A stretch of 63,976 bases of DNA, filler included, from Chrysochromulina tobinii (taxonomy: Eukaryota): assembly GCA_001275005.1 (NCBI GenBank). It is 9 parts of 9 records of this genome, joined end to end, with 100 filler letters (N's around TTAATTAATTAA, not from the genome) between each part and the next. Parts side by side here need not be neighbours in the genome. Positions count along the whole stretch, not along the records: positions 38,437 to 52,789 come from JWZX01000147.1; 8 more parts are not named here. The stretch is one strand, 5' to 3'. The notes below the pieces were generated by a model that was given only the letters and a program-made list of their open reading frames with translations, was not told the DNA's origin and made no database searches. Within the stretch, counting starts at the first letter, position 1. Every line of letters begins with the position of its first letter. Position numbers and translations under genes: made by a program. Shown here piece after piece: positions 1-62,703 of the stretch.

Positions 1-310
1 CTCTCGCGCCGCCGCCTCCCGCGCCGCCGCCTCCCGCGCCGCCGCCTCTCGCGCCGCCGCCTCCCGCGATGTCGCCGCCGCCTCCCGCGCCGCCACCTCT
101 CGCGCCGCCGCCTCCTTCGCCGCCGCCTCCCTGACTGCCGCCTCTCTATCCAAGAGCTCTCTTTCGCTCGCCTTCCTCAGAACCGCCTCCCTCGCCGCTG
201 CTTCGGCCGCCACCGCCTCCCGCGCCGCCGCCTCCCGTGCCGCCGCCTCCCACGCCGCCGCCTCTCGCGCCGCCGCCTCCTTCGCCGCCGCCTCCCTCGC
301 CGCCGCCTCG
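1..310 (-). repeat. 15-nt coding tandem repeat encoding (EAAAR/K)n
   Basis: Degenerate units of ctcccgcgccgccgc on +, reading GAG GCG GCG GCG CGG on -. Confidence 0.9.
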
Positions 311-1121: not shown

Positions 1122-1166
<45 letters not shown>

Positions 1167-7100: not shown

Positions 7101-8476
7101 GCTGTGAGAAGGGGGTGGTCGGAGGCACTCAGAGGCACTCAGAGGCACTCAGAGGCACTCAGAGGCACTCAGAGGCACTCAGAGGCACTCAGAGGCACTC
7201 AAAGGCACTCAGAGGCACTCAGAGGCACTCAGAGGCACTCAGAGGCACTCGGACCTGTAGGAATCGTCCCTCGCGCATTTGACCTCTGAGCTGATGATAC
7301 TGGTCGCGCACCTCGCGCAGCTCGCGCATCATCGGAGGTGTGCACCCCTGGGCGGCGGGATCAAGCGCGTTGTCTCGCTGGAGCGCCACGGCCGCGGAGA
7401 GTTTGGGCGGCAGTAGCGGCGTGGTCAGCAGCACGGCGCGCAGAAGGCGCTCGGCGGACGGGATGCCCCGACCGTCAGCGTCAATGAGGGAGGCTTGCAC
7501 GAGTGCCCGCTCACCTGAGGACAGAGCCACTCAAAGGAATTCAGCGGCGCTCAGACGCCATCAGGCGCCATCAGGTGCCATCAGGTGCCATCAGGTGCCA
7601 TCAGGTGCCATCAGGTGTCATCAGGTGTCATCAGGTGTCATCAGGTGTCATCGCTCACCTTCCCGCAAGACTACCGGGTGTCTCACGCGCAGCGCACGGA
7701 TGGCCCACGGCTGATCGCCGCGCAAATGGACTCCCCACAGCGGCAATTCCACAGCGAGCCCGGCGGCACACCTGCCATGAGACGCCATCGAACGCAATCA
7801 GAGGCCATCAGTCGCCATCAGTCGCCATCAGACGCCATCACACGCCATGAGACGCCATCGAACGCAATCAGAGGCCATCAGAGCGTTCCACAGCGAGGCA
7901 CGCCCTCAAACTCAAACCCCATCAAACCCCCTCAAAGGCCATCACACGCCATCACACGCCATCACACGCCATCACACGCCATTAGACGCCATCAGACGCC
8001 ATCAGACGCCATCAAACCCCCTCAAAGGCCATCACATGCCATCACACGCCATCAGACGCCATCAGACGCCATCAGATGCCATCAAACCCCCTCAAAGGAC
8101 ATCACACGCCGTCAAACGCTATCAGAGGCACACCCGACGATCGCGCGTACAGAATTGCCACTCGCCGCCACCACCGAGCCAAACGGGATGAACGACGAGC
8201 CCTCGCCGAATGCAGCCTCCGCGTCGTCCTGGGCGTCCTCATCGACCTCCGCATAGCTCGCCGCTGCGCCGCGCGCGCGCCGGGCCATCCCACCGGCCGC
8301 CCCGCCCGCCGCGCTGCCGCCGCACCCGGCCGCCGGTGCACTCGTCGCTTCCCATCGCCGAGGCCACAACGGTCTGGCCGAGAGCGCATGCGGTAGGCAC
8401 ATGGCCATTCGGAAGCCATTGGTGGGCTCGACGATCATGTTACGGTCCGCGAGCAGAAGCAGCACAAGCTCCTTGA
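1..8476 (-). CDS. Giant Sfi1-like (Trp-repeat, putative centrin-binding) and coiled-coil protein; partial at both ends
   Basis: Exons (minus) 8476-8134, 7771-7659, 7514-7255, 7101-1 join in frame through GT-AG introns. The last exon has no stop in the frame of codons 3k+1..3k+3 (about 2367 aa) and runs off the window. It carries many L/A-x-x-W-R motifs (LRRCLVRWRW, LTTALSTWRH, RQGWRAWRAR, ALRHWRR), then Ala/Glu coiled coil, poly-Q and (EAAAR)n. The Sfi1 assignment rests on motif resemblance only. Confidence 0.75.
7102..7254 (-). repeat. Intron filled with (GAGTGCCTCT)n, about 13 copies
   Basis: CAG|GTCCGAGTG donor and CTCACAG acceptor; removal restores the frame (FLQ|RISEFE). Confidence 0.85.
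7515..7658 (-). repeat. Intron filled with 10-mer (TGGCACCTGA/TGACACCTGA)n; AG|GTGAGCG at both junctions
   Basis: GGAAG|GTGAGCGatg ... ctcAG|GTGAGCGggc; phase-1 join. Confidence 0.8.
7772..8133 (-). repeat. Intron filled with (CGTCTGATGG/CGTGTGATGG)n; GTGTGCC at both junctions
   Basis: GTCGG|GTGTGCCtct ... ggcAG|GTGTGCCgcc; phase-2 join. Confidence 0.75.
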
Positions 8477-8576
8477 NNNNNNNNNNNNNNNNNNNNNNNN
8501 NNNNNNNNNNNNNNNNNNNNTTAATTAATTAANNNNNNNNNNNNNNNNNNNNNNNNNNNNNNNNNNNNNNNNNNNN
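8477..8576. other. Artificial contig spacer (same 100-nt linker at 16707-16806, 27984-28083, 30855-30954, 38337-38436, 52790-52889, 56049-56148, 62604-62703)
   Basis: N44 + TTAATTAATTAA (stops in all six frames) + N44, identical eight times. Confidence 0.99.
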
Positions 8577-16706: not shown

Positions 16707-16953
16707 NNNNNNNNNNNNNNNNNNNNNNNNNNNNNNNNNNNNNNNNNNNNTTAATTAATTAANNNNNNNNNNNNNNNNNNNNNNNNNNNNNNNNNNNNNN
16801 NNNNNNGATCGATCCGATCGAGGACGAGGCGGGAACATAAAAAGTTTGTTTGGAAGGCAAGTCAAGTCAAGTCAAGTCATGCCTGCGTCTGTCGGTCAGG
16901 CGTCTGTCGCTCAACTTGACTTGTCTTGTCTTCGACTGGGAATATCTCTGGCC

Positions 16954-20223: not shown

Positions 20224-20448
20224 TTCACGCTTTCAATCCCTATGAATACGAGTTCAAGTCAATGTACATGTATTGATTTCACTTGACTTTGTTCTGGGGT
20301 CAGTCCCCTGGATGGTTGGATGGGCACGGACAGCAGGACAGGGTTCGGGAAACTTGACCTAGTTAGGAAGTTCTTGCTCGCTCGTGAATGGAGCACAAGT
20401 GCAGAGCCACTTCTGCGCGAGCGAGCACGGCACCTCGCTGCATCAGCA

Positions 20449-23400
20449 ATGGGCTGCGCTAGCTCGAGCCCAGGCAAGGCCGCTCGGCTGCCGCCGCCTG
20501 GCGGTGGCGGCGGCGGCAGCACGCAGCAGACGGATGAGGATGGCTACAACCCGCTGACGCAGGAGGAGATCCATTCACGCATCCAGTGCAGCGAGAGGGC
20601 GCTCCTGTTCCCGCTCGGGAAGACGGGTGTGACATTGCGCTATGCGTACCTCTCGCAGCGCGGCTACTATCCCGATGACCTTTACAAGGCCAACCAGGAC
20701 GCGTTCAAGATCGTCGAGAGGTTCAATGGCCGGGACGACCAGATCTTTCTGGGCGTGTTTGACGGCCACGGCTCGGACGGTCACTCGTGCTCGTATTTTG
20801 TGCGCGACTCGATCGAGGCCGAGCTCAAGCGCCAGATGGCCAAGTACCCGAACGACTTCGAGAGGGCGTACCGGCTCGCGTTCGAGACCGTCAACCTGCG
20901 CATGCACGACCAGTACTTTGACGACTCAATGAGCGGGACGACGGCGATCACTGCGTTCTTCACAGGCACGACGTTCACAGTGGCGAACATTGGCGACTCA
21001 CGCGCGATGGTGGGCGAGAAGAAGGGCAAGCGAGTCATTGCCTACTCGCTCTCCATTGACCAGACGCCCTACCGTGCGGACGAGCGGGAGCGCGTCAAGG
21101 CGGCAGGTGCGGTGGTCATGTCGTGTGATCAGCTCGAAGGAGTAGTACCGTACCATGAGAATTGGGGCGTGAGTCTGGGCGAGGAGCTCGATAACGGCGG
21201 CGACCCGCCGCGCGTGTGGGCGCCCGGGAAGAGCTTCCCAGGCTGCGCGTTTACGCGCTCGATTGGCGATTCGGTCGCGGAGAGCATTGGAGTGTACTCC
21301 GAGCCCGAGTTGCTGCGCAAGGAGCTCGCTGACGGGGACCAGTTCCTTGTGCTCGCATCGGATGGCGTGTGGGAGTTTCTGACGAACCAGTCGGTCGCGG
21401 ACATCATCACGAAGTTCGACGACCCGCTCGACGGTTGCCGCGCCGTCGTGGCTGAGTCGTACCGGTTGTGGTTACAGTACGAGGTGCGGACGGACGACAT
21501 CACGATGATCCTCGCTTTCGTCGACCGTGCCAACGGCCAGAGCGGCAGAGAGCAGCCTAGGTCGGGCTCCCTCTCCACGTTGCGCCACGGCTCCCCCGAC
21601 CAAATGTCGGCCGGGCTGGGCGTCGTCGGGCGCGCTGGCGGCGAGAATCGCCCAGTACGGCGCGCGCTCTCGAAGGAGAAGAAGTCGCAGATGTCGATCT
21701 CGTCGACGTCGGCGGAGGCGGAGGACTTATCTGATTGGGTGATGGAGACGATCCCAAAGACCCGAGCGGAGCTCGCGCGCATCAAAGGCGCCGTCAAGAC
21801 CAATTTCCTCTTCCAGCACCTGAACGAGGCTCAGCAGCAGCTCGTGTTTGACGTGATGAAGCGGGTGGAAGTTAGCCGAGGCGACGTAGTCATTCGGCAG
21901 GGCGACCCGGGGGACTGGTTCTACGTCGTCGACTCGGGCGAGTTCTCAGTCTGGATGAGCCAGAATGGCAAAGAGCATCAGATCCTCAGGTACGCTTGAT
22001 GGCTGATCTCGACTGATCTCGGCTCACTGCAGATTGCCTCTTGAGTGCCTTTGAGTCCCTCTGGATTGCCTCTTTGATCAGGTACACGACCGGCGGCGGC
22101 ATCAACCCTTGCTTTGGCGAACTGGCCCTCATGTACGGCAAGCCGCGCGCGGCCACAGTGCGCGCGGACACGGTCGGCGCACTTTGGGCAATGGACCGCA
22201 AGTCGTTCCGCTCGATCTTGATGAAGTCGTCCTCGCTCACGCTCACGCGCACGCTACGCGCCGTGGCGGTCCTCAAGAGTCTCTCCGTCGGTCAGCTGCA
22301 GCGCCTGCAGGACCTGCTGACGGAGGTGACTTTCAGCCCTAATCAGAAGATCATCACGCAAGGCGAGGCGAGTGACAACCTGTACATCATCGCAGAGGGG
22401 CGCGTGCGCATCACGAAACACGAGAATGGGGGGGAGAAGCACGTCATGGACCTCGGGCAGGGAGCCTACTTTGGCGAGCGTGCCCTACTTTACTCGGAGC
22501 CACGCGCAGCTTCGGTGCATGCCGCTGAGTGCCCCCGAGTGCCTCTGACCGCCTCTGCTCGCCCCCGATCGCTTCTGGCCGCCTCTGACTGCCTCCGTCA
22601 TCAGGTGAGTGCCTCGACTGCATGCAAGCTGCTCTACATCTCCAAAGGCGCATTCGAAGAGGTCCTGGGCTCGCTGCAGGGGATCATCGACGTTGACCGG
22701 CAGACGCGCGAGGGGATCGCCCATCAGAAGGCCCTCGTCCTTGAGCAAGAGGGCCTAGCACACGTGCAGGTGCCGCACGTGTGGGAGGGCATCGAAGGCG
22801 TCGCGTGCGCGTCCGAACCCTTCCAGTACACTTTAGCGAAGCTCAAAGGGCGCGAGTACACTGTCCGGGTCGCGTCTAAGGATAAGATCGTCCAGTCTGG
22901 ATTGCATGCGCGGGTGATGGCGGAGAAGGAGCTCGTCTCGACCCTCGTACAGGAGCATCGGATGGTGCCACTTGCTCTCATGACGCTCCAGGACGAGAGC
23001 ACGCTCTTCACTGTGTACAAGCCCCGCGTCGCCATCGACCTCGCCAGCTTGATGGGGGAGAGCGGCTTCGACGAGGCGACTGCGCGATTCTACACGGCTG
23101 GGGTGCGCTGCTTTTCAGTGCCTTATCAACGGCCTCTTGATTGCCTCTGGATTGACTCTACATGGATCCTTGTTTGACTCTTGATTGCGTATCTCATCAG
23201 GTGTGCCTCGGGCTCGAGCACTTACGCGCCGAGCACAGCCGCATCATCTACCGCAACTTGACGCCCGATGCGATCATAGTCGATGCCTTGGGCTATCCGC
23301 AGCTGATGGACATGCGCTACGCCGTCAAGGTGGATTCCGCGCCCACGGACTTTTGCGGCTATGCGCATTACCTCTCGCCCGAGCAGGTGCTGGGGCAGGG

Positions 23401-23854
23401 GCACGGCTTCGCGGCAGACTTCTGGGCGCTCGGCATCCTAACGTACGAGATGTGCTGCGGCGGCGCCAACCCTTGGCTCACAGGCGACTCTGTCGAGGAC
23501 AGCGAGATGGGCATCTACGCGCGCATCTCGGCGCATTCTCACGAAGGCCTCAAATACCCCGAGGGCTCCAGCCCGTCCAAGGAGCTCGTCGAGGTGCTCG
23601 ATGGCCTGTTGCACCCCGTCCCAGGCAGCCGGCTCGGCGAGCGCGGCATGGGGCCCAAGGAGCTGCGCCACGCCAAGTGGTTCAACGGGCTTCATTGGGA
23701 CAAGCTCGAAGCGGGAAAGCTCGACTCGCCGCACAAGAGGCAGGCGCACGAGGCCGAGAGCGCCGCGCTCAGGGGAAGAACGAAACCCGACGGGCTCGGG
23801 TCCAGATACTCAGGCGAGGCGGGCCTTTTCAGCGGTTTCAGCAGCATCTTCTGA
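20449..23854 (+). CDS. Protein phosphatase 2C + two cNMP-binding domains + degenerate AGC-like kinase domain
   Basis: Exons 20449-21989, 22082-22514, 22605-23102, 23201-23854. PP2C: NQDAF, GVFDGHG, ANIGDSR, TRSIGD, LASDGVWE, DDIT. cNMP: FGELAL..PRAATV and FGERAL..PRAASV. Kinase: YRNLTPD, DMRY, YLSPE, ADFWALG. N-terminus MGC. Confidence 0.92.
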
Positions 23855-27404: not shown

Positions 27405-28187
27405 TCTCGACAGAGGTTTTGTGATGTGATCGCGCGAGAAGGAGAATCGGTGATCGGATTGAGATACGAGATGACGATTGAAGGGAAAAACCCGAGCGCA
27501 ATCTCCCGGGAGACTGTTCTTCCGATTTCACGTTGACGACATGAGGAAGGTGGTTTCGTATTTGCCCTCATGGTGAAGACACATTTTAGACGGGGAATCG
27601 CGGCACCCGATGTTTGAGTTTCACTTGAGTATGAGTTTCACATGCCAACCAAACATGGCGCCCCCATTCGGTTCCCAAAATTCGAAACCAAAATGGGCAA
27701 GCATGCTGTGAATGAACACATGATCCTCCTCGCGAAGAACACAGTCGAGTGGAAGCACTTTTTGGGCACATTGACCGATTGAGCTTAGAATTTGATGGTG
27801 TGTTCGTAATTGTTGATGTTGTCCCCACACCCCTCACCCGGCACCCGCAGTTTGGCGAGCAAGCAGTGCAACGCGGAGCAAGTGCTTTGTTTTAGCTTCA
27901 AGTGCGCGCTAGGGGACTTGCGTTGCGAGACACTCTCGGGTACCCTCTCACGAGCCCGCCCCCCCCCCCCCCCCCCCCCCCCCNNNNNNNNNNNNNNNNN
28001 NNNNNNNNNNNNNNNNNNNNNNNNNNNTTAATTAATTAANNNNNNNNNNNNNNNNNNNNNNNNNNNNNNNNNNNNNNNNNNNNTTAAGACTCAGTGTGGG
28101 GGGGGGCGACCGATACGGCGCCTTCCCCACTTTTTGGCATCACAAAGCAAGACAGGTGAGGCAGGCTTCTCGGAGCTCGCGCGCGCG

Positions 28188-30854: not shown

Positions 30855-31093
30855 NNNNNNNNNNNNNNNNNNNNNNNNNNNNNNNNNNNNNNNNNNNNTT
30901 AATTAATTAANNNNNNNNNNNNNNNNNNNNNNNNNNNNNNNNNNNNNNNNNNNNCACACCGTCATCGACGATGCGCAAAAGACCCTTCGCCCCCACGCCC
31001 CTTCTCAACAGCTAACCCTGCGTGCCCCACGTGAATTCCGAGTAGGCGGAAGTTTAATCAGACCGCTTGTTTCGTAAATTTCCATATGCGGGA

Positions 31094-38336: not shown

Positions 38337-38436
38337 NNNNNNNNNNNNNNNNNNNNNNNNNNNNNNNNNNNNNNNNNNNNTTAATTAATTAANNNNNNNN
38401 NNNNNNNNNNNNNNNNNNNNNNNNNNNNNNNNNNNN

Positions 38437-38949
38437 CGCCGGCTTGATGACGAAGCGCGCCGCGTCGTAGAGGGTGACGGTGCCGGGTGTCCTTTGCTTG
38501 CCACTCTTGTCGGCCCACCCCTCGGGCTTGCATCGCCGACAAATGTGCGAGCACACGCGCTGCAGCTGTGCGCCAGTGATGGCCCGTTTGGCAGTCTCCG
38601 CGATGGTGCAGCCGCCGCGCTGAGCACCGTGCAGGTCGGCAAAGTCCTCGGCGGCCGGCGGCCTGACGTGGACAAAGCTGCTCGCATAAAAACCTTTGCG
38701 CCACTCGTCGATTGTAATGCAGCCATCCGAGTCGAGGTCGAGCTCGCCCATCAGGGTTGCGAAAACCACGTCGTCGTAGCCTTGCTTTTGCAATGCGCTC
38801 TTCAACTCATCGCAAGAGATGGTCTGATCGCTGTCGACGTCGATCTCCTTGAAGATCCTCGTCGGGTCTTGCCACTGGAGCGTCTCCGGCGTGCGCACCT
38901 CGACCCCATCGTCAGGATTTGGCGCCACCTTCGTGACGGAGCCGCCCAT
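38437..38949 (-). CDS. EF-hand pair protein, 3'-partial; possible N-myristoylation
   Basis: DVDSDQTISCDEL and DLDSDGCITIDEW are canonical EF loops; starts MGGSVT. Confidence 0.85.
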
Positions 38950-39276
38950 CCTCGAGTGAAGGAAGGTCCTGTACACTGAACAGCACTGTGCTTGTTCCCA
39001 GTGAAATTAAGAAGCAGGGTTTCGTCAATGGATCTGCGTCGGACGTCGCCGACGTCACGGCCGACATTATGTTGTAATAACCCGTACCGGGGTCGTTCGA
39101 CATTCACAGGTTCTGACCATTTCTGCTTCTGTTCACACACGCTCACTTTCGACTTGGTTTGGGGTCGCCAGATTCACCCGAGGAACTGTGCTTCACATGA
39201 AACGGGGAGCGTTGCACATCGCGCGTGAACCCGTGAAGATCTCATCTGAGTTCCTTTGGCTAATATTTCTACATTT

Positions 39277-42080
39277 TCAGAAGTTGGCGTCGCAGAGCGC
39301 TTCGAGCCAAGGCGCGCTCTCGCCATGACGGATGCCTCGCACCTCGCGCAGCAGCCGTCGTATGAGCACATCCTCGTGCATTTGGAGCGCAAAGTACGCG
39401 GTCCAGCCGTGCCGATCGCCGGGGTGTGTGAAGAACTGGTCGGGTCGCATCGCCGGCGGCGCACCCTCTCCCAACCGAGGCCCACCGGCTCGGCGCACGA
39501 TTTCCTCAAACCACGCGTCGTCCTGAGCGCCACCCTCGCCCGCGTGGACGCTCGCGTTGCGCGCCGCGTCGTCGTGGCGGAGCGCGCCATGCTGGGCGCA
39601 TGCTGTTCGGAGCAGACGGATGTCGTCAGCGACCGTTGGATCCGTCGATGGCGCCGTGCTGGGCGCCCGGGGCGGCGCCTGCCCGGCCGCCTGCCCGGCC
39701 ACCTCGGACCGCCCAGCACGGCGCGTGTGCTTCGTGTGTGCATGCGGAGGCGAGGCCGCCGCACACAGCGCCGCCCGGACACGGTTGCAGCCGGCGGCAC
39801 GGCCGGTGCGCTGAAGGACGCTCGGAGAGCGCGGTCGCGCCGTGAAGACGTTTCCGGCGGCGTCGGTGGGCACCACCCCCGCCAGGGCGGCGCAGCCGGC
39901 GGTGGCACACGAGCGTGCGATGCAGCAGGCGACGCAGCTGCCGGCGCCGTGTCGGGCGCGCGGTGCGTCGAGTCGTCGGCGCCGTGTCGGGCGCGCGGTG
40001 AGCAAGGAGCTTCGTGAAGAAGCGTCGGATGATGGGAAGGGGAAGGCGCCTGCATGCAAGTGCTCACCACGGCGCCATGGCGATGGGAAGAGGTCAACGG
40101 CCGCCGGGCACGGTGCACCTGCTCGGCACGGCGCGCACCTGAAGGCGGGCTCGAAGGCGGCGCACGCGTCCGGGGTGGAGGTGGCGTTCTGGACGGGAAC
40201 CAGCGCAGAGCACAGGACCGGCTGCGCAACGCCCTCCCAATCAAACGCCCGGCGCAAGTCGGCTTCACGCTCGTCGTCGCGCCGTCGTGGGCGCAGCCGT
40301 ACAATCTGCGACACGCGCCCAAGCCGACCGGTCCACGTACCTGTGGGGAGCGCGCGCGCCGTGCTGAGCACTTGCATGCGCACGTGAGGGACTGTGACAC
40401 GCGCCCGAGCCGACCGGTCCACGTACCTGTGGGGAGAGCGAGCGCCGTGCTGAGCACTTGCATGCGCACGCGAGCACTGACACGTGCCCGAGCCGACCGA
40501 CCCGCTTACCTGGAACCGCTGCCCTCACCGCCGTGTCGACAAGCAGCACCTCCGGCGGCAGCATCAGGCCCGTGTCGACCAGCTGCACGTCAAACCGAGC
40601 AAAATGCGAGCGCATCAGGCAATGCGTAGGCATCGACCAGCCGTCCATATCGGGGAACTCTGCTCGGTAGCGCGCGTTGCAATTGCGTGGGCATGCCAGC
40701 CGGACCGGCGTCATCGCTCCGCCGCTCGCGCCGCCGCTTGTTGCGCCGCCGCTTGCTGCGCCGCCGCTTGCGCCGCCGCTTGCGCCGCCGCTTGTTGCGC
40801 CAGCCACGTTCGTCGGCGCCCGCATGGTCTTCAGAACCGGCCAGAGCGCGCGCGGCACGAGCAGCAGCACATCATCCTCACTCACGATCGTCTGCGGGCT
40901 GAGCCTCGCCGCCATTGTCGCCAATCGGCCCCCATCGGCGACCGGTACCTTGAAGACTTGATCGGTGCGCACCTAATGAGGGAGGCAATCATACTGATGA
41001 GCCAGGCAATCAGCCTTCGGCCACCGGTAACTTGGAGACTTGATCGGTGCGCACCTTGAGCATCGCGTCGTAAATGTACGGCGCGCCCTCATCCTCGTGC
41101 TCGGCCCGGCGCGCACCACCACGCTCGGCGCGGCGCGCCTCGTACTGCTCGATGAGCTCGACGCAATCTGCCCAACGGCCAAATTGGGCAGTCGAGGGCA
41201 GCCCGCAACTAATGGGCTCCGGCACCGTGCGCAGGCGCACTCCGAGAGGGCGCAGGCCGGTGAGCGCCGTGCCGAGCAGCTCCGCGTGCGCCGCGGGCGC
41301 CTCCCACGGCCCCGCCGCCTGCCGCTGCTTGGTGGATCGCCAGCTAAAAGACTCGCGCCATTGACTTGGTGGGAAGAGATCCGACGCATCTGTGTAGCGG
41401 TGCGAGCGCGCGGCGGCGCCGTAGGGCGAGTCCTCGGGCCCGGTCGAGAGCACGACGAAGGCGTCGAGGCCCGGCTCGGCGCGCGCGCCGTGGGTGCGCC
41501 CGAGCACATGCTGCTCGATACTCCTCCACACGGTCGGGTGCACGAGACTGCGCGGCATGCCCGCGATGCATACGGCGACGCGCGCTGCCCGAGCCGAGGT
41601 TGGCGCGGGCACGGGCGGCGGCGGTGGCCGTCGCTGATGGCGCTGCTGCACCTGGAGCCACGGGAAGTGCGACGCGTTGCCGATGCGCGGCCGAGGCTGC
41701 CGACGAAAGTGTGGCCGCTCGTGGCTGCCTCGGAGCGGCTCCGGCATCAGGCAGTGCTCTGCGCACGGCGGCGCGAGCAACACGCCGGCCACGCAACCGC
41801 TAGCTGGGTGGGCTCGATGCAGTGGCAGGTGCATCTTCATGCAGCATCGCGACGCGATGGGCGGCGACGCCACGGGCAAATACGGCGCGTTGCACACGGC
41901 CGTCACATACGTCCACGCGAGGCAGCCGAGCGTGGCTGCGCAGAGCTCGCAGCACTCGTCTGCGGTCGACACGGGCTCACACGGGCCAAGTTGCGCGGTT
42001 GGCCGTAGCCAGCTGCCGTCGGGATCGCGCGCCGTCGGCGTCAACCACGAGGCGTTGGATGTGTGCGAACAGGCCTCCAT
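39277..42080 (-). CDS. PAN/apple-like domain + putative glycosyltransferase-like domain + Cys-rich C-terminus
   Basis: Exons 42080-41055, 40972-40510, 40340-39277. TADECCELCAATLGCLAWTY..CCMK (PAN); RVAVCIAG.PR, DAFVVL, QF..W..C, YDAMLKVRTD (GT-like). Confidence 0.65.
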
Positions 42081-45000
42081 GGCATGAAATACATGTTCTC
42101 TTCTGTACGGCCGTTCATGTGTGAACGTTAACACGACACACGTGTAAACCTCAACCTGAAAAACTTTGGATCTAATTTCTTACTGCACATATATCTATGC
42201 ATCTAAGGGATAACCCTGTAGCTCCCTGTATGAATGCACATCATGATGTTGAGCACAGAGGGCTTCTGCAGCTGGAGGTAAAAACTATAGCGGTGGTCGG
42301 CAGGGCGCCGCGGCTCCTCGTGTGCCCTCCACTTCTAAGCCGCGCGCACTGAGATCTTCAGAAGCGCGGCGGCGGCGGCCCAGTCGCCGGCCTGGCCACG
42401 GCGGTGGCTCCCGGCCGAGGCGAGGCGTAACCGCCGTAACCACCCCCCGGGGGTGGTGTGTCCATGCCGCCCGGCGCTGGATACCACGGCGGCTGCGGCG
42501 GCTGCGGCGGCTGCGGCGGCGGCGGCGGCGGCGGCGCGTATCCATGCGAGGCGCGGCCGGCCGCGGAGGCAGAGGCAGTGCACGCGCGAGGCGACTTGGG
42601 AGGGGTGCCCGGGGCGGCGCCCGGGGCGGCGCCCGCCCGAGGCGGTGGCGGCCGTCGCTGCGGCGAGGCGAGAGCGACCTGCCGATCGGCGAGGAGGAGC
42701 GATGCGAGGTGCACGAATGAGGCAGGCAATCAGCATGCAATCAGAGATCATCAGAGCGACCTACCTGGAGTGACTCGAGCTCCTGCGCGAGCTGCCCCAC
42801 CTCATGGAGCGCCACCTCGCGCTGCGAGGTCACTCGCTCCGCCGCGAGCTGCTGCGAGCTCCGCTGCATCTCGGCGTGATCTCGCTCCTCCTTGAGCACC
42901 GCGTACGCCCTCCGGATCTCGGCGAGATCGCGCTTGGCGGCGACGAGCGCCGCCTTGGCGGCCTCCTCTCGCCGCCTCGCCTCGTCGGCTGCCTCCTTGG
43001 CCTGCGCGAGCGCCTGCCCCGCACCCTCCTTCTCCTGTCGTATTTGGGTCGCCTGCCGCTTTTCAGCCTTGAGTCGCTGTGCGGTCGCCTGGTGCGCAGC
43101 CGTCTGTTCCCTGAGCTCCTCGCGCACCTGATGAGGGAGGCGATCAGAGGCCATCAGAGGTGATAAGAGGCGATCAGAGGCGATAAGAGGGCATCAAAGG
43201 TCGAGAGCTTCACACGCACAGCCGCGAGCGCCTTGGCGAGCTTGCGCGACTCGCGATGCGATCCCATGAGCTCATCCGCCTCCGCCTCGGACACGTCCGC
43301 CGGCCGGCCGAGAGCGACGAGCGCCCACCGGTGCAACGCGCGCGCACACCTGTGGGGAGAGCGCGCCGTGGTGAGCACTTGCATGCATACGACGAGCGCC
43401 CGCAGGTGCGACGCGCGCGCGCACCGGTCGCGACGGATCAGAGGCAATCAGAGGCAATTAGAGGACAACTAGAGGCAATTAGAGGCCAATTAGAGGACAA
43501 TTAGATGACAATTAGAGGCAATCCGAGGCAATCAGAGCGCGCGCGCACCGGTCGCGACGGACGCCACAGCGGAGGAGATGTTCGAGACGGGCGGCGCCCG
43601 CAAGCCTTCGGGCCTGCTTGCCAGCGTCGGCATGGGCGAGCACCTGTGAGGGGTTCGTCAACGGCACTCAGAGAGAGGCACGCAATCAGAGAGAGGCATG
43701 CCGAAAGGCGAGCACCTCGCCGCGCTCGAGCGCCGTCTCGGTCATCTCGAGGGCCTTGCGCGCGTGCGCCTCGGCGGCATCCGCGCGCGCGCTCTCGGCG
43801 TCCTTGTCCGTCTTGAGCTTCTCCATCGCCGCGCGGTGCAGCCGCGCGCGCTCGAGCGCGGCTGCTTCCCGAGCGGCGGCGTCCTTGCGATCGGCCTTGA
43901 GCTCGGCGATCTCGCGGAGCAGCGTCGAGCGCTCCTGTGGGGAATGGAGGGGGGGGGCGCTGTGGTGAGCACCTGCATGCAAGGGCAGGGCTCGGCGATC
44001 TCGCGGAGCAGCGTCGAGCGCTCATCACAGCGCGCCGTTGGGGACGTCGCTGCTTCGCGTTGCCTCGAGCGCTCATCACAGCGCACCTTTTGTGACGTCG
44101 CCGCCTCGCGTTGCTTCGCCTTCTCGCGCTCGATGGCCGCCTCGGCGTCGGTCTTGCCCGCCTTGAGCGCCTCGCGCGCCTCGCGCAGGCTGCGTGCCAA
44201 TCCGAGGCAATTAGAGGCAATTAGAGGCAATTAATAGAGGCCATCATCAGAGGCCATCATCAGAGGCCATCATCAGAGGCCATCATCAGAGGCCATCATC
44301 AGAGGCCATCATCAGAGGCCATCAGAGGCCATCAGAGGCCTTCAGAGGCCTTCAGAGGCCTTCAGAGGCACTTGGAGGCACTCACCTGCGTGCCAATCCG
44401 TCGCGCTCGGCCTGCAGCGTCGCCACCGTCTTGCGCAGCGACCCCTCCTCGAGCGTGCCCGACACGGCGCGCTGCGCCTCGGCCTGGGACGTGGCGAGGG
44501 AGGCCGCGAGGGCCGTGCGCTCCTCGCGAAGCGTCGCGAGGCCCTTCTTGAGCGCCTTCTCGCGCTCGGTCGCCGCGTCGCGCTCGTACCGGAGACGTTT
44601 CGATTCCTCGAGCAGCTCCTGCATGCAATGAGGGAGGCCATCAGAGGCGCACTCAGAGGGGCGCGCGCTCAGGCGCACTCAGGCGCACTCAGGCGCGCTC
44701 AGGCGCCTTCAGGCGCGCTCAGGCGCGCTCAGGCGCCTTCAGGCCCTCCATGAGTCGATCGAGACGGAATCGAGATCGAATCGAGATCGAATCGAGATCG
44801 AATCCGAGGGTTTCGTCGCGCACCTTGGCACCGAGCAGCCGGGCGGTTTCGCGCCACGCCCAGAGCACACGGAGGCACGAGCCGCCCCCAAATGGAGAGA
44901 GCCACACGACGCGCTGGAGCTCGAGCAGCCGTGCGGTGCGACGCCCGGCGGCCTCGACGGTCGTGGCCTTTAAGCCGCCGGCGCCGGCGCCGCCACCGTT

Positions 45001-48000
45001 TGCCATCGCGGCGGCAAAGGCGCTGTTGGCGGCGGCGAAGGCGGTGGCGCCCCCGGGCTGAGCGCCGTACTGAGCGCTCACGGCACTCGCGCTCGAGAGC
45101 GTCGTGCTGAGCGCTTGGCGTTCGGGCACCGGCTGCAGCGCGAGCGCCGTGCCGAGCGCGTGGTTCGGCGGCGGCGGCAGCGACGCGCGCGTCGACGGCG
45201 GCGCACGCGGCGGCGGCGAGAGCGAGGGCGAGGTGACGGGCGGCTTGTCGCGCTCGTCGCGGCGCTCCTGTGCCGTGTGGAGGGTGTGGAGGGTGTGGAG
45301 GGTCCGTCGGAAGGGGCAATTGGGCTCCGGCGCTGTGGTGAGCACTCGCATGCAAGGGAAGGTCATCAGTGGCAATCAACGTACCTGGAGGGTGCGTCGG
45401 AAAGGGAAGTTGGGCTCGGGCCCACTCGAGGCGTAATAGACCCATCGACGGAGCGCCTCCCCCGCCACACAGAGCCAGGAGGCGGTGAGGCACGCGTCCA
45501 ACCGGCGCGCCGCCGCGAGCAGCTCCGACTTGCTCAGTTGCTCCTCTAGAGAGGGTACCTCGGCAAGCACCTGATGACGAGGGAGGCCATCGAGGGTGTG
45601 AATTGAGGCCATCATCAGAGGCCATCATCAGAGGCCGATTCAGATACCATCTCCCGAGAGCGCATCTCCCGAGATCGCACTTCCCTGGCCCTCAGCTTAA
45701 GGGAGATCGAGGGCACTCAAGGGAGATCGAAGGAGATCGAAGGAGATAGAGGGAGATCATGGGAGATCAGGGGAGATCGCACCTCCTTGGCATCCCTCAG
45801 CTCGCGCCGTGCCGCGAGCGCCTCCGCCGCCTTGGCCTTCGCGTCCTCCCGAGCGCCCTCCGCCTCCCGCGCCGCCCCCTCGAGCTGCTCGCGGAGTGCG
45901 GCTTCGCGTGCTGCCGCGGCCGCGCGCGTCGCTTCGTGTGCACGATCTCGCTCGAGCTCCTGCGCGGCGCTCGCGGCCTGAGGGCGCTGTGGTGAGCACT
46001 CGCATGCAAGGGCAGGTCATCAGTGGCCATCAACGTACCTGGAGGGTGCGCAGTCGCTCGTGCTCCGCCGCCGCCGCCTCCTCGAGCTCCGCCCGCAAAG
46101 CCGCACGCGCCTCCGCCGCCGTTGCCGCCTCCGCCGCCGCCGCGGACCAACGGTCGCGCATCTCGTCCACCTCGCGCTCGACCGCGCTCAACTCGGCGCT
46201 CAGCGCCGCGCGGACGGCGTCGGCGTCGGCGAGCGCCGAGTTGAGCGCGAGGTTGCCGAGATGGCGCTGCTCGTCGCGCTGGCGGAGCGCCGTACCGAGC
46301 GCCGACTGGAGCCGCTGCGCCTCCATTTGCGTGGCGCCGAGCTGTCGCTGCACCTCCCTCTGCATCGCCTGCAGCGCCGCGTGCTGCTCGAGCTGCTTCT
46401 GAGAGCCCTCCACGAGCGTCATCGAATCGAGCAGCTGGGCTCGCAGCTCCACCTGCAGCCCATCTGCGTGGATCCGAGCCTGCGCCACCTCCACCTCCAC
46501 CTCGCCGAGCGCCGTGCTGAGCACGCGCTGCGACGCCTCGAACGCGCGCACGTGCGCGCTCATCTCGGCGACCAGCTGGGCGCGCGCCGTCTCGGTGCGC
46601 TCCCGTTGGGCGCGCGCCTCGAAGGTGAGCGCCTCCATCGCCTCGTCCGCCGCCGCGCGCGCCGCCTGCGCCGTCTCGAGTGCGCGCGCGCCCGCCTGGA
46701 GTTGATGGCGGAGGTGGCCGAGCTCACCACGGCGCGGCAGCTCGGGGTGATTCTCGAGCCGCTCGAGCGACCTGTGGGGAGGTGAGGGCGCCGTGGTGAG
46801 CACTTGCATGCAGGTAGCTCGGGATGATTCTCGAGCCGCTCGAGCGACCTCCACGCGCGCTTTGCCGTTACGAGCCATCCCTGGCTCGTCATTTGGGTCG
46901 TCGTTTGGTCATGGCCGATTGGTGTGGCCTTGGGCCGCGGCCGATCAGCCGCCGCCGCTGCGCCCGCCGCAGCGCCGAAGCCACCTATCTTTGCGGCGGC
47001 GGGCGGGGCGGCGGGCGGGGCGGCGGGCGGGGCGGGGCCGTCTGCGCTGCTTCTCGCGCTTGCCGCGGGGGTGGGCGTCGTCTTGGGCACCAGGCGTTCC
47101 TCGAGGGCCGCGAGGCCCTCCGCGAGGTCGTCGAGCGCCGAGGCGGCCGCGTACCTAATGAGGAAGGCAATCATCCTAATGAGGGAGGCAATCATGATAA
47201 TGAGGGGGGCCATCGTCCTAATGAGGGGGGCATCCATCCTAATGAGGGAGGCACTCCTCCTAATGAATGCCTCACTCCTCCTAATGAATGCCTCACTCAT
47301 CCTAATGAGTGCGCCACTCAATCCTCCGCGAGGTCATCGAGCGCCGAGCCGGGCGCGTACCCGTCTTCGAGGCGCAGCGCCGCCGCGAGCTCGAGAGCAG
47401 CCGCATGTCGACGCACCTGTGGGGAGGCGATGGCGCCGTAGTGAGCACATGCGTGCTTGGAGAGGGCAGCCGCATGTCGACGCACCGCATGCCCCTGCTC
47501 GGCCGCCGCCTCCTTGGCCACCGCCAGATCGCCCTCGAGCTGCGATCTCGCGGTCTCGAGCTGCGATCTCGAGGCCGCCAGATCGCCCTCGAGCTGCGCC
47601 GCGCGCGCGCGTGCCTCTTCGACCTCGGCGGAGAGCGTGTCGATCGTCTGGTCCGCCACCAACAACGACTCCGCCACCTGATGAGGAAGGCAATCAGAGG
47701 TCATCAGAGAGGTCATCAGAGGTCATCAGAGGTCATCAACAACGACTCCGCCACCTCGGCCGCATCAGTCTCGGTCTTGAGACGCAGCTGCTCTTCGGCC
47801 GCACAGGCGGCCGCCTTGGCCGCCGCGACCTCCTTGGCAACACGCAGCCGCTCACGTAGCGCCGCCCCTTGCGTCTCCTCGGCCCCGATGGCAATCTGCA
47901 CCGGCGCGCGAGAGGGGAGGTGAGCAGCAGTCCAGATCACTCAGCGGTCACTCCGAGGTCACTCCGAGGTCACTCCGAGGTCACTCCGAGGTCACTCCCA

Positions 48001-51000
48001 GGTCACTCCGAGGTCACTCCGAGGTCACTCCGAGGTCACTCCCAGGTCACTCCGAGGTCACTCCGAGGGCACTCCGAGGTCACTCCCAGGTCACTCCGAG
48101 GTCACTCCGAGGGCACTCCGAGGTCACTCCCAGGTCACTCCGAGGTCACTCCGAGGTCACTCCGAGGTCACTCCGAGGTCACTCCGAGGTCACTCCGAGG
48201 TCACTCCGAGGTCACCCCGAGGTCATCAGAGGTCGCGAGCACACCTGCACCGCCGCGAGTGATGTGAGCAGTTGGTCGAGCGAGGGAGGGAGCGCCTCGT
48301 GCAGCGGCGGCAGCGGCGAGGTATGCGTGAGCGGCACGAGGCTCGCGTGCACCTGATGAGGGGGGCAATCATGAGTGTCATCAGATGCGGGAGGCTGACG
48401 AGGGAGGCTGATGAGGGAGGCAATCAGGCACGAGGCTCGCGTGCACCGTCCCAAGCAGCTCGCCGATCTCGAATAATTGGACTAATTGGGTCTCCTGCTC
48501 GAGCTCGAGCAGAGATTGCTGGAAGTGCCACTCGGACTCGGCCGCGCGCGCGAGCTCCATCTGCGCCTGCGCCTGCGCCTGCGCCAGCTGCGCCTCCGCC
48601 TGCGCCCTCGACAGCACCTCCGCCGCCGTCTCATACGAGAGGGGTTCTCCCCCGTGCATGGGAGCGTCATAGAGCGTCTCGTCGAGCAAGTGGAGCCCCT
48701 CCTCCCCCGCCTCGGCATGGGGCGACGCATGCAAGTGCCCACCACGGCGCGCGCGAGAGGGGAGCCCCTCCTCCCCCGCCTCGGCATGGGGCGACAGCGG
48801 CGGCTCGCGGTGCTCGCGACGGCGCGAGGCCAATGGGGGGGGGCGCCGTACCGGGCGCGTGCTGCGGCGACGGCGCGGGCGGCGGATGCGAAGGCAGCAG
48901 CTGCGGCAGCGGCGAGGGACCGTGCGTCGGGAGCTGTGCGGGTGCCCAGGACGGCGCCACGTGCGAGTCGCGCCGCAGCTGCGTGGCGCCCAGTACGGCG
49001 CCCTCGAGGCGCCTCTGCCGTTCGCGCTCCTCCATTTGAGTCGCCCTCGCCATGCGCGCCTCCGCCTTCGCGCGCTGCTCGGCCAACGCCTGGAGCTGCC
49101 CTTGGACGCTCGTGTGGAGCTGCCCTTGGACGCTCGTGTGGAACTGCCCTTGGACGGAGCGAGAGTGCACCTGGCCGGCGCGAGATTGCATCTGGCGCTC
49201 GTCCGCTGAGCGAGATTGCATCTGGCGCTCGTCCGCTGAGGCATCGGCGCGTGCGCCCATCAGCTGCGCCTGCGCACATTCAGCGTCCCGGCGGGCCGCC
49301 ACCGCCGAGTCCGACGCCGACGCTCGGAAGTCTCTCGGAAGTCTCTCGGAAGTCTCTCGGAAGTCTCTCGGAAGTCTCTCGGAAGTCTCTCGGAAGTCCG
49401 ACGCCGACGCCGAGAGAGTCTGAAGTCGCTCGGAAGTCTCTCGGAAGCGGGCCAGCGCCGCCTCCGTCTCCGGCGCACCCGCCGATGCGAAGTACGGGGG
49501 GGCGGAGGCGTGCGGCAGCGTCGAGTTGGGCGGAGGCGCGACCACCGAGAACTGTGCCGAAAGCGAGCACGCGGCACGGGGGGCGCCCGCCACGACGCCC
49601 GGCGCACCGCCCGCCACGACGCCCGGCGCGACGCCCTGTGAACGGTCCGTTGGCGAGGCCAGGTGTGAACGGCCCCCTGGCGAGGGCCGGTGTGAACGTG
49701 TGCCCGAGCTGCGAGGCGGCGACATGAACTCGTCGGTGGGCGTCGTGGTGGGCGCGGCGCTGCCTGCTGGCGGTTCCGGGGGTGAGGTGTTCGGGGGGGA
49801 GGTGTTCGGGTAGGTGGGTTGGCGTGGCTCATAGCACTGAGGCGCGGGCTGTGGCGAAGGGGGGAGCGCATCGACTTCATGCGGGACGCCGAGCCGCGCC
49901 TCTCTCCCCCTCATCGGCCCGCCGCCTCCTCCCACCCCAACGGCAGCCGCGCTACCCGCCAGCACGGCGCCAGCGGAGCCGCCCGCCACGATGCCCGCGC
50001 CCGAGGCCGCCAAGTTGCGCTCGACACAGCGCTCGGGCCCGCGCGCTGGCGACGAGGAGTTGACGAACCCCCGTTCGGGGTGGCAGGCAGGGACAATGCG
50101 AGCGCCCGCCGTGCTGCGCGTGGCCGACGGCGCCGTGCCGGGCGCGGTGCGCGCCGTGCCGGGCGCGGCGGCGCCCGCCTCCGCGCCAGTCGCGCGCATG
50201 GGGCGGCTCGGCTTCGGTTGTCGCGCCGCCGCCGGGTCGACGCACTGCGGGCGCTCCCAGTGGACCTCGGCCGCGTACCCGCCGCTCGTGCCGCAGCCGC
50301 CGCCCACTCCGATGACGGAGGGGGGCGCCCAGTTGGGCGCCCACGACGGCGCGGGCGCCAGGGCCGCTCCGCGCGCCAACGGCAGCCCATTCACAGGCTG
50401 ATTCACAGGCTGGTTCACCATATGGGCCGGCGCCGAGTTGAGCGCCGGCGCGAGTGAATGGAGAGTGGGCGGCTGGGCGAACCGGGGCGCCGAGTTGAGC
50501 GCCATCGAGCGTGCCGCGCTGGGCGCCGTCGTGGGCGCATCCTCCGGCGGCGAAGGCGGCGGCGACATGGGATTCGAACCGCACGGCTCGAACGGCGCTA
50601 CTTCCATGCCGTGCAGTAGTTCGGGCTTCCGATCGGGCGCTGTCGTGGGCTTCCGATCGGGCGCTGTCGTGGGCTTCCGATCGGGCGCTGTCGTGGGCTT
50701 CCGATCGAGCCACGCCTCCGACCAGCGTTCCACAGCTTGGCCCAGCAGAGCCTCGCGACGCTCCTCCGCGCGCTCCGCGAGGCGCCCACGACAGCGCTCC
50801 GCGTGCTCGGCGAGTCGGCGCTTCTCGGCCTGCCGCGCACCTGTGGGGAGAGGGGCGTGGTCGCGCCGTGGTGAGCACTTGCATGCGGCGCGCGGCGTAC
50901 GCGTGCTCGGCCGACCGCGCCGTCGTGGGCGACGCACCGTGCTTGAGACGTTCCGCCTCCGCCGCGGATGTCTGCGTGTCGTAAAGTTGGGGCGGCGGCG

Positions 51001-51765
51001 CCCGCATGAGCTCTTCACAGCCCTCGGCTGCGCCGTGCATCGCCGCTTCCGCCGCGATCACGACGCCGTAGACGGCCGCAAAGAGATCCGAATCGTTCAT
51101 CGCGCCGTGGTGAGCACTTGCATGCGCAAAGAGATCCGAATCGTTCATCGCGCCGTGGTGAGCACTTGCATGCGCAAAGAGATCCGAATCGTCCCTCGCC
51201 GCCGCCGCCGCCTCGGACTGCGGACTTGGCGGCCGGTCGAGGGTCACCCCCTGTGGGAAATGGAGCAAGGGCAGCACCCTGCAGGCGGGCACGCTGCAGG
51301 CGCCCACGGCAGCGCTGCAGACGCCCGCAGACGCGGCCGGCTCCGCGGATGACGACGACCCCGCGTGTGCATCGAGGGCGTTGGTCCTTGACGAACCTTG
51401 ACGAACCTTGACGGACCTTGTCGGCGACCCCGCGTGTGCATCGAGGGCGTGAGGGAAATGGGAGGAGGCGTCGGCATGCGATGTGGCGGCGGGCGCGCTG
51501 TGGTGGGCATGCGCGCTGTGATGGGCATGCGCGCTGTGGTGGGCATGGGAGGAGGTGTCGGCATGAGATGTGGCGGCGGGCAGAGCGGCGGCGCTGTGGT
51601 GGGCATACGCGCTGTGGTGGACATGCGCGCTGTGGTGGGCATGAGCGCTGTGGTGGGCATGCGCGCTGTGGCGAGCATGGGCGCTGCGCCATAGTTCGAG
51701 CTCTGCCTGCGCGGCTGCCAAGCTGTCCCTGGCAGTGAGCAACTCCTGTGGCTGCTGCTGCCGCA

Positions 51766-51800
<35 letters not shown>

Positions 51801-52481
51801 TGCTGCTGCTGCTGCTGCTGCTGGACAGCGCCTGCGAGCGGTGCCGCCGTGGTGGGCATGTGCGCCGTGGTGGGCATGTGCGCCGTGGTGGGCATGTGCG
51901 CCGTGGTGGGCATGGGAGTACTCCGCGGCCGCGACGGCGTCGCGCCGCTCAGCCACGCCGCACGCGCCATGGCCGCCGGACCGAGAGGATCTGGACTCGA
52001 CACGTGGTTGCCTAATTTGGTATCCAAACTCGTTCCAACGACGGGGGCCGTTGCAACGGAGGTAGCTGCCACGTGGCAGCCTGACGTAACGGAGGTAGCT
52101 GCCACGTGGCAGCCGGACGTAACGGAGGTAGCTGCCACGTGGCAGCCTGACTTAGCTGGCAGCGCTGGCGGCAGCACGGGCGGCGATGGCGAGGAGAAGT
52201 GTGGCTCGGCCCGGGCGAGGACGACGCGCGCTGCATCGAGCAACGCCGCGGCGCTTGAGAGCGAAGGTGACTCGCGCGCCGGCGCGCCGCCGTGCTCGGC
52301 GGCGTGCACGTGGGCAAACGCCTGTGCGAATGCATGCACGTCGGGCACGCCGCTGCTGCCGGTGCCGCCGCCGCGCGCACGGCCGCCGCGCTGCTGCCGC
52401 CGCTGCTGCCGTTGATGGCGCTCCTCGTCCTGCGCTCCTCGTCCTGGGGAGGAGAGGGCGCCGTAGTGAGCACTTGCATGC
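40052..52481. repeat. Dispersed cassette A family GCATGCAAGTGCTCACCACGGCGC, about 14 copies, both orientations
   Basis: Copies near 40052(+), 40357, 40443, 43364, 43957, 45329, 45983, 46787, 47433, 48727(+), 50863, 51101, 51149, 52457; all in this one contig. Confidence 0.9.
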
Positions 52482-52737
52482 TGCTGCCGTTGATGGCGCT
52501 CCTCGTCCTGCGCCTGAAGCCAGCGCTGCTGCTGCTCGAGCTGCTGAAGCTGCTGCTGCTGTTGTAGCTGCTGCTGAAGCTGCTGCTGCTCGTACGCGTG
52601 CTCGTCCTCCTCCTCACCCTTGAAGAGATTCGATCTCATCGGCTGAGATGCGATCTCCTCCTCACCCTCGGGGAGCCGATGGCGGCGCCGTGAGCTCAGG
52701 CTGGGAGGTGGCGGAGGCGGCAGGTGCGGCGGTAGGT

Positions 52738-52789
<52 letters not shown>
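42358..52789 (-). CDS. Very large low-complexity/coiled-coil protein, 5'-partial, about 18 exons
   Basis: Predicted introns 50841-50937, 48353-48446, 47896-48244, 47678-47754, 47417-47485, 47155-47360, 46772-46848, 45978-46038, 45571-45782, 45268-45384, 44619-44823, 44190-44385, 43935-44086, 43644-43715, 43350-43548, 43128-43219, 42679-42764, all GT-AG and phase-compatible. One unexplained frame change near the G-run at 48835-48843. Confidence 0.75.
47937..48230 (-). repeat. Intronic 11-mer array (AGTGACCTCGG)n
   Basis: About 26 units of ccgaggtcact on +, inside intron 47896-48244. Confidence 0.9.
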
Positions 52790-53231
52790 NNNNNNNNNNN
52801 NNNNNNNNNNNNNNNNNNNNNNNNNNNNNNNNNTTAATTAATTAANNNNNNNNNNNNNNNNNNNNNNNNNNNNNNNNNNNNNNNNNNNNTGTGTGAATGT
52901 GAGTGTCTGTGTTCTAACGCGGGTAACGAACCCTGCAGCCAAACTTCTCGCGCACTCTCGCGAAAGCGCGTGTGGCCCGCGCGAGCATGGCTAGGATTCC
53001 TATGGAATACTTGAGCGGGCAGTTGATCTTAAACGAGCGCGTTGACGTGCGGGCCGTCATGCTCCACGGTGTCATCGCTAAGGACCGCGGCACGTGTCAC
53101 ACCCTCTATACGTACACACGCGCCCACACCCTGTAACACCCGGTGCTCTCCGGGCGGCATATGCGCGGGGTCTGGTCATATCCGGCACGTCGTCATCGCC
53201 CATCCAGCGCCCATCGAGATTGGTTTCGGGC

Positions 53232-56048: not shown

Positions 56049-56148
56049 NNNNNNNNNNNNNNNNNNNNNNNNNNNNNNNNNNNNNNNNNNNNTTAATTAA
56101 TTAANNNNNNNNNNNNNNNNNNNNNNNNNNNNNNNNNNNNNNNNNNNN

Positions 56149-62603: not shown

Positions 62604-62703
62604 NNNNNNNNNNNNNNNNNNNNNNNNNNNNNNNNNNNNNNNNNNNNTTAATTAATTAANNNNNNNNNNNNNNNNNNNNNNNNNNNNNNNNNNNNNNNNN
62701 NNN

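Follow-up and report, generated by a model that had tools for sequence, protein, structure and literature searches.

The origin of new spliceosomal introns is a long-standing question. Introners, on which Huff et al. reportedly wrote in 2016, are the best-supported source, and their mobilisation is mostly unknown. Here we describe an intron of 77 nucleotides (nt) on the minus strand (46772-46848) of a stretch of DNA from Chrysochromulina tobinii (GenBank assembly GCA_001275005.1), together with the repeat family to which part of this intron belongs. The whole stretch that was analysed, 63,976 nt in length, is called the window below. Statements on published systems refer to those parts of the cited papers that were available. 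In Micromonas, Aureococcus, Symbiodinium, Chrysochromulina and others, introners occur as hundreds of near-identical short introns in unrelated genes (PMC9860276). Their target duplications are 3-9 base pairs (bp) long and fixed per family (Gozashti et al. 2022, PMC9860276), and a 2024 review gives 3-5 nt (PMC11282704); a splice site is co-opted from the duplication in both directions (PMC9860276, PMC11282704). Such short, fixed duplications are typical of DNA transposases. A 2025 survey (PMC12130899) lists DNA elements, long terminal repeat (LTR) and non-LTR elements, Helitrons and Cryptons as introner sources, together with families of unknown mechanism. Intron gain by AGGT tandem duplication and by staggered breaks is modelled in a 2012 review (PMC3443670).

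The family described here is like introners in that many near-identical short introns lie in unrelated genes, a target duplication is present, one splice site is in the element and the other comes from the duplication, in both directions (PMC9860276), and copies are present or absent between strains. It differs in that the duplications are 20-57 nt (median 31-33), which is about 40% of the intron, whereas those of the introners in the cited texts are 3-9 bp. It also differs in the lack of terminal inverted repeats, in the half-introns of 31-60 nt, and in a daughter copy that carries the duplication of its mother. The long and variable duplication supplies both the missing splice site and the needed length. 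In the case of intron gain by tandem duplication of an AGGT exon segment, the duplicate likewise starts at AG|GT and gives the 5' site, and splicing restores the message (PMC3443670, PMC3265369, PMC4974935). Under that scheme, however, the intron is a copy of the exon only. Here the two copies enclose a foreign, high-copy cassette, from which the intron gets its branch region, its pyrimidine tract and, in most cases, its AG. In the staggered-break repair of Daphnia, direct repeats likewise flank the new intron and arise from fill-in with filler (PMC3443670); in Daphnia short repeats enclose a unique filler, whereas here the repeats are long and the filler is always a piece of one intron family. 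Fungal introner-like elements and reverse splicing are alike in that the mobile unit would be a spliced intron RNA (PMC9860276, PMC11146597), but reverse splicing predicts no target duplication, and here most copies have one. The family unites features of three models: the introner, the AG|GT duplication that gives a splice site, and the long flanking repeats. We regard it as a family of introners whose target duplications are unusually long and variable. No introners with duplications of tens of bases or with half-intron elements were found in the literature searched, to the extent of its available text. The supplements of PMC12130899 gave 0 matches to the cassette words in 12 of 14 files; its family table, of which 1 of 33 parts was covered, could list such a family.

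The layout of the locus is given in Table 1. On the minus strand, GGAG directly precedes the upstream 33-nt copy. The initial annotation had taken the 77-nt intron for a copy of 33 nt of exon plus a cassette, with one mismatch between the copies on the sense strand. This layout is read directly in the sequence, and a search for direct repeats returned the same pair (46736-46773 and 46813-46850; 38 nt, 95% identity, spacing 77). The 33-nt copies differ at one of 33 positions (T/C at 46824/46747), in agreement with the young age proposed for the insertion. The local alignment of one flank to the other scored 66; 1000 dinucleotide shuffles averaged 15.5, with a maximum of 28, and none attained 66. 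Thus, the 33-nt repeat is not due to chance. A cut of 77 nt can be placed in 27 equivalent ways that yield an identical product, and only the cut at 46848..46772 has GT...AG ends. The other 44 of the 77 nt are not duplicated exon but the cassette of a foreign repeat family. We infer that CTCAC in the cassette core would act as the branch site. Terminal inverted repeats are absent from the element ends: the repeat list has no inverted pair joining 46772-46785 with 46802-46815, and the ends ACCTGCATGC and CTCCCCACAG are not complementary as judged by eye.

Table 1. Features of the intron locus and filler blocks of the window (positions count along the window; GC2 and GC3, G + C fraction at second and third codon positions)
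Feature	Position	Strand	Remarks
GT-AG intron, 77 nt	46772..46848	-	5' site GTCGCT 46848-46843; 3' site CACAG ends 46772
Intronic (upstream) copy of duplicated target, 33 nt, GTCGCTCGAGCGGCTCGAGAATCATCCCGAGCT	46816..46848	-	Provides 5' splice site
Cassette A, 44 nt	46772..46815	-	ACCT + 25-nt core + pyrimidine tract + CACAG
ACCT	46815-46812	-	Start of cassette A
Core GCATGC...GGCGCC, 25 nt, with branch-site-like CTCAC	46787-46811	-	Part of cassette A
CTCACCTCCCCACAG	46786-46772	-	End of cassette A, after core
Exonic (downstream) copy, GTCGCTCGAGCGGCTCGAGAATCACCCCGAGCT	46739..46771	-	Encodes (R)SLERLENHPEL; sole copy in empty alleles
Upstream exon, KRAWR frame	46849..47152 (upstream limit approximate)	-	Only stop-free frame; GC3 0.81, highest
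Downstream exon, coiled-coil-like protein without Pfam family	46038..46771	-	SLERLEN frame GC3 0.91, GC2 0.48
Type B intron, 61 nt, GTACGTTGATGGCC... + core + CTCAG, without flank duplication	45977..46037	-	Neighbour of 77-nt intron
Filler blocks N44-TTAATTAATTAA-N44, n=8	8477-8576, 16707-16806, 27984-28083, 30855-30954, 38337-38436, 52790-52889, 56049-56148, 62604-62703

The segment 46772-46848 is a spliced GT-AG intron, cut precisely in one RNA contig at the sites that the initial annotation had named. Five RNA runs (X14, X15, X16, X18 and X19) and three DNA runs (X1, X2 and X11) were compared; the libraries matching the stretch are labelled 'mixed culture' and freshwater. A contig of 198 nt from RNA run X18 (record 19) aligns to 46945-46825 and 46747-46671, with 121 and 77 nt on either side of a joint that omits exactly 77 nt and with one other letter (46710 G>T). 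When the cut is shifted by 24, its ends are CT..AC on the plus strand and hence GT..AG, at 46848/46772, on the minus strand. This contig retains the C variant found in the downstream copy, matching the prediction for splicing at 46848/46772. On the upstream exon, RNA contigs lie at 46825-46945 (X18) and 47043-47147 (X15). X14, X15, X16 and X19 have no contig over the junction, either spliced or retained, and are evidence neither way. In the three DNA runs only the filled form is present. Contigs 46012-46799 and 46785-47194 match the window without difference and cover both intron borders. The depth in the bins 46698-46758 and 46820-46880 is that of these single contigs, which indicates that no joined DNA contig exists there (15 of the 35 DNA joints were listed).

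Splicing had been considered necessary to join KRAWR to SLERLENHPEL, as 77 is not a multiple of 3. The arithmetic stands, but the necessity applies to the KRAWR frame only, because an ATG at ~46878 (MARNGKARVEV...) opens a frame that runs through the unspliced 77 nt into the downstream open reading frame (ORF). The KRAWR frame is the real upstream frame, since the N-terminal parts of five related proteins (P0001-P0005) align to it. It is conserved in relatives, and this removes the read-through from the ATG at ~46878.

According to the protein comparison, related strains have empty alleles of the intron, which the initial annotation had suggested looking for. A protein search with the downstream exon returned 9 proteins. 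In P0001-P0005 (337-352 amino acids, 87-88% identical) and P0008 (141 amino acids), ...AKRAWRSLERLENHPELPRRGEL... is uninterrupted, and KRAWR|SLERLENHPEL is thus read through without a break in six predicted proteins of related contigs. By tblastn, residues 19-137 of P0008 match 46773-46417 with 100% identity (119 residues), and residues 2-30 match the upstream exon in another frame. P0008 is therefore colinear with the spliced form. P0001-P0005 end at ...LQVR and a stop, running into the retained 61-nt intron (GTACGTTGA), and P0007 reads right through the 61-nt intron. Their contigs therefore resemble unspliced DNA from which just the 77-nt intron is missing. The 61-nt neighbour is accordingly the older of the two introns, as it is retained in the ORFs of P0001-P0005 and P0007; it is itself spliced out in an X14 RNA contig, whose joint 45976->46038 omits 61 nt, with CT..AC at cut +1. 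On this protein-level evidence, the 77-nt intron is shown to be absent from related strains, and the sequence comparison confirms it as a recent gain. Other introns of the same gene also vary. P0006 and P0007 start inside an intron at a CAG|GTGGAG site near 46455, and P0008 ends in an intron after ...DSMT (~46417). The window has neither intron, so that the intron content of one gene varies between strains.

Several sequence features lie close to the insertion. At 46880-46925 on the minus strand, just upstream of the intron, the window encodes ...TTTQMTSQ..., and P0001-P0005 have MTNQ/MTTQ units in varying number; this is a variable short coding repeat. A (GGGGCGGCGGGC)n run is found at 46993-47041. 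In the downstream exon, 3 nt past the downstream copy, the 14 nt at 46722-46735 on the minus strand match the reverse complement of 46788-46801 in the cassette core perfectly. The predicted RNA fold pairs this piece with the core (-80.4 kcal/mol, z = -4.9). It encodes PRRGEL, which is kept in the empty alleles, and the inverted piece is therefore older than the insertion. A general role as a guide for inverted pieces of the cassette next to the target was rejected, as an inverted fragment of at least 13 nt is nearby in only 3 of 182 copies. The 14-nt piece is an unexplained oddity of this locus.

The cassette is repeated at many other sites. In the window, 14 matches to the core were detected at up to 3 mismatches against 0.00 expected; the minus strand has 12 of them, in the region from 40 to 52.5 kb, and 11 of the 14 have flank duplications. 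In DNA run X1, the depth of the cassette bin is ~34000 against ~45-50 beside it, and this ratio of ~700 (a rough figure, with all contig depths summed) suggests hundreds of copies. Scanning metagenome contigs for the core gave at least 136 stretches, and the family counts given here rest on the matches listed; the scan of assembled-genome contigs gave 0 stretches. Among the matches listed, the alignment between the two flanks of a copy scored at least 30 in 104 of 155 unique copies, compared with 5 of 155 when flanks were mismatched across loci. Adding the copies of the window and clustering strain variants brings the count to ~172 loci, and 119-120 of these have a locus-specific duplication with a median of 31-33 nt. 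The cassette belongs to no known family of RNAs or ribozymes: an Rfam search over 39500-53000 with E up to 1 returned only two chance rows far under threshold.

Two mirror-image forms and a third class of the element are distinguished. Of the 87 copies of type A (core + pyrimidine tract + CCCCACAG), 64 have a duplication (median 33 nt). The duplicated segment opens with (A)G|GT and provides the GT, and the cassette carries the branch region, the tract and the AG. Type B (ACGTTGATTGCCACTGATGACCTGCCTT + core) carries the 5' part instead; it numbers 29 copies, and 19 of these show a duplication (median 25 nt). Here the duplicated segment closes with CAG(G[T/C]), and the 3' site comes from its downstream copy. 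At two loci, L062 and L040, a GC donor comes from the target. The third class has neither intact end and comprises 66 copies (64 loci), 42 with duplications. In type A, the ...CCCCAC(AG) end is constant and the stretch before the core varies from 0 to 38 nt, and type B is the mirror image. The family-wide target-site-like duplication, the mirror type B and the atypical 5' site GTCGCT go beyond the initial annotation.

The splice sites are placed with regard to the duplication. In ungapped type A copies, GY..AG (Y, pyrimidine) stands exactly one period apart in 46 of 51 cases, and in type B in 13 of 15. When the period is shifted by -2, -1, +1 and +2, the type A counts are 26, 12, 28 and 4 of 51. 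Splicing at the exact period would restore the target. The donor is 0-4 nt inside the start of the duplication in 40 of the 46 type A cases, and the commonest type A donors are GTGCGC (8) and GTACGC (6). In the 43 high-quality type A cases, the duplication ranges from 20 to 57 nt and is not fixed, and 12 of the 43 are 100% identical; no clear motif was present at the far end of the duplication in these cases. The element end (CACAG) overlaps the target by 0-4 nt. The introns of the family are 65-95 nt long, and the duplication is shorter where the element is longer (Spearman -0.45, p = 0.002). Intron lengths modulo 3 are distributed as 26, 20 and 18, with no excess of multiples of three. Two copies are skipped in RNA contigs; for the other family members, indirect evidence from their sequences suggests that they too would be removed from RNA as spliceosomal introns.

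Some copies in the window have other arrangements. At 48689-48795, a core-only cassette of the third class (48727) is on the plus strand with a flank duplication of 34-38 nt, antisense in a minus-strand ORF. It is an in-frame insertion of 69 nt (23 codons) with no GT-AG pair at the period, and it may be an exonised insertion. Tandem units of duplication plus cassette are found at 40306-40512 (cores 40355/40441) and 51078-51204 (cores 51101/51149), with periods of 83-86 and 48, and similar arrays are present in loci L012, L088 and L091. These arrays are probably expansions through slippage between long repeats.

Two pairs of loci indicate what is copied. L070 has a type A intron of 71 nt, and the first 16 nt of this intron are a copy from the exon downstream of it. 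The L070 intron matches the inner 71 nt of L126 at 67 of 71 positions; the homology extends precisely from GT to AG, between flanks that are unrelated. L126 thus holds the exon-derived 16 nt of L070 and, in addition, a 12-nt flank repeat of its own, GTG[C/G]TCGCGACG. This match implies that L126 descends from an L070-like intron and carries the fossil of its target. In the second pair, L083 and L116 share 18 nt upstream of the core, and 11 of the 18 are in the own, diverged duplication of L116. According to both pairs, the unit copied appears to be an intron, either whole from one of its splice sites to the other or in shortened form.

From these results, the best explanation of the 77-nt intron is a copy of the target joined to a half-intron cassette, which likely arrived by way of a 5'-shortened intron of the family, copied from RNA into DNA, at a staggered break. 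We give this explanation a probability of roughly 0.65. In such a process, an excised family intron RNA, often shortened from one end, would be turned into DNA. The copy would enter a staggered break, and fill-in would duplicate the target, which is 33 nt of exon here. Entry could be by target-primed reverse transcription, or by capture of the RNA or its complementary DNA during repair. Copies with the AG end would need a target that starts with GT (type A), and copies with the GT end a target that ends in a pyrimidine-rich ...AG (type B). Exon insertions whose duplication offers no usable splice site would be purged. The upstream copy would give the GT and would lengthen the cassette, which is probably too short alone, to a workable intron size. 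An RNA intermediate is presumed, and the RNA route is favoured over a DNA transposase because of the variable duplication length, the overlap of 0-4 nt, the lack of terminal inverted repeats and the GT-to-AG daughter. Target-primed reverse transcription of short and long interspersed elements (SINEs and LINEs) leaves target duplications that vary in length, a 5' edge that varies and a 3' edge that is fixed, with a few nt of microhomology where the 3' end joins the target. The duplication of variable length and the microhomology are the likenesses to the present family. The differences are that there is no A-rich or LINE-like tail and no known partner enzyme here, that the 3' end is a splice acceptor, and that type B has a fixed 5' edge.

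Several points weigh against this explanation. The evidence from mothers and daughters consists of two pairs. The mirror form and the third class exist, and the latter suggests that the ends at splice sites may partly reflect selection. The stretch between duplication and core is heterogeneous, and only ~8 of 43 copies resemble simple 5' truncations of one master. The 172 loci come from different assemblies, and strain variants of a single site may still be among them. Among the 94 ORFs of the window, Pfam detected no reverse transcriptase, endonuclease or transposase, and the absence of the first two counts here. The 3' end of the element is a pyrimidine tract followed by CACAG rather than an A-rich or LINE-like tail. 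At the locus itself, the 5' site GTCGCT is unlike the usual GTRCGY (R, purine) of the family, and the empty alleles are known as predicted proteins only. The RNA support is one contig with a depth of 2.6 in one of five RNA runs, and the mismatch at 46710 makes it possible that this contig is a DNA trace of an empty-allele strain in the library.

A non-autonomous DNA transposon, of the introner or miniature inverted-repeat type, would move the cassette as DNA and make long staggered cuts by an unknown transposase, and its intron-shaped ends would result from the purging of other insertions. Most known introners are DNA elements and take one splice site out of the target duplication, according to the available parts of PMC9860276 and PMC11282704. 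Duplications are also present in 42 of the 64 loci with neither intact end, and the antisense copy at 48727 has one as well. We consider this origin unlikely, as the duplications of 20-57 nt stand against the fixed 3-9 bp reported in those parts, and the element has a variable 5' edge and no terminal inverted repeats. The 16 nt derived from the exon of the mother, carried in L126 and bounded exactly by GT and AG, also argue against it, as does the lack of a transposase among the ORFs of the window.

DNA-templated repair or template switching during replication was also considered. In this case, a broken or stalled DNA end copies a piece of an intron from another place in the genome and returns behind its starting point, and a tandem duplication with an insert is left. 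The order of target copy, element and target copy, with 0-4 nt of microhomology at the junctions, is the expected trace, and the tandem arrays at 40355/40441, 51101/51149, L012, L088 and L091 fit it. Such switching, however, explains neither a copied piece that ends exactly at AG (46 of 51 type A copies), nor the exact GT start in L126, nor hundreds of copies of one 25-nt core, and it is judged improbable.

The intron could instead be old, and relatives could have lost it precisely by recombination or slippage between the 33-nt copies. Long direct repeats favour exact deletion, and tandem expansions of the same units exist. But the single difference between the two copies speaks against a great age. 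Moreover, all six related proteins lack the intron, and five of them (87-88%) keep the 61-nt neighbour, so that repeated loss would be needed. We regard precise loss as very improbable. Finally, a retained insertion translated from the ATG at ~46878, whose product would include ...ATCMQVLTTAPSPPHR..., agrees with the open frame through the segment into the downstream ORF, but it is scarcely credible in view of the X18 RNA contig without the segment, the ORFs of the relatives that extend upstream in the KRAWR frame, and the family lengths without an excess of multiples of three (26, 20, 18).

The explanation by copying from RNA can be extended tentatively to the family as a whole. The members might be 'retro-introners', that is, spliceosomal introns that reproduce via their excised RNA, with a duplication of 20-57 nt replacing the lost splice site and each generation carrying the target fossil of its mother. 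We hold this extension to be possible, with the odds somewhat against it. If it is true, the family would show for the first time, at the level of sequence, that spliceosomal introns retropose and duplicate their targets; if the origin by intron copying is true, it shows how new introns are born. The GT-to-AG daughter that carries the duplication of its mother makes the idea of introns spreading through spliced RNA directly testable. The material is suited to such a test because copies are polymorphic between strains and 12 of 43 duplications are identical. The long repeats predict that precise loss is easy, and gain and loss could be followed in cultures.

As for the window, it consists of 9 joined contigs. 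The TTAATTAATTAA linkers between them place stops in all frames, and the intron is in the piece 38437-52789; distant parts of the window therefore need not be neighbours. The G + C content is high (0.59-0.75) and the DNA is eukaryotic. Further short repeat units (...GATTGCCTCCCTCATTAG...) are present at 47150-47335 and 44215-44330 on both strands. They appear in the ORF lists as LIRM/PLIAS/SEAIIRGHH and look like further intron repeat families with ends ...TTAG or ...CAG. At 1-7128 on the minus strand, an open frame of 2376 codons without a break or a Pfam family runs off the start of the window. The Pfam domains detected in the ORFs of the window belong to a gene with PP2C, cNMP-binding and protein-kinase domains, and to EF-hand, TFIIIC, glycosyltransferase and methyltransferase proteins. 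The consecutive ORFs at 20287-23851 on the plus strand, with the PP2C phosphatase, three cNMP-binding stretches and the protein-kinase domain, are probably a single multi-domain gene interrupted by short introns. The nearest protein-atlas clusters of the PP2C-cNMP protein are eukaryotic (Streptophyta, Bacillariophyta).

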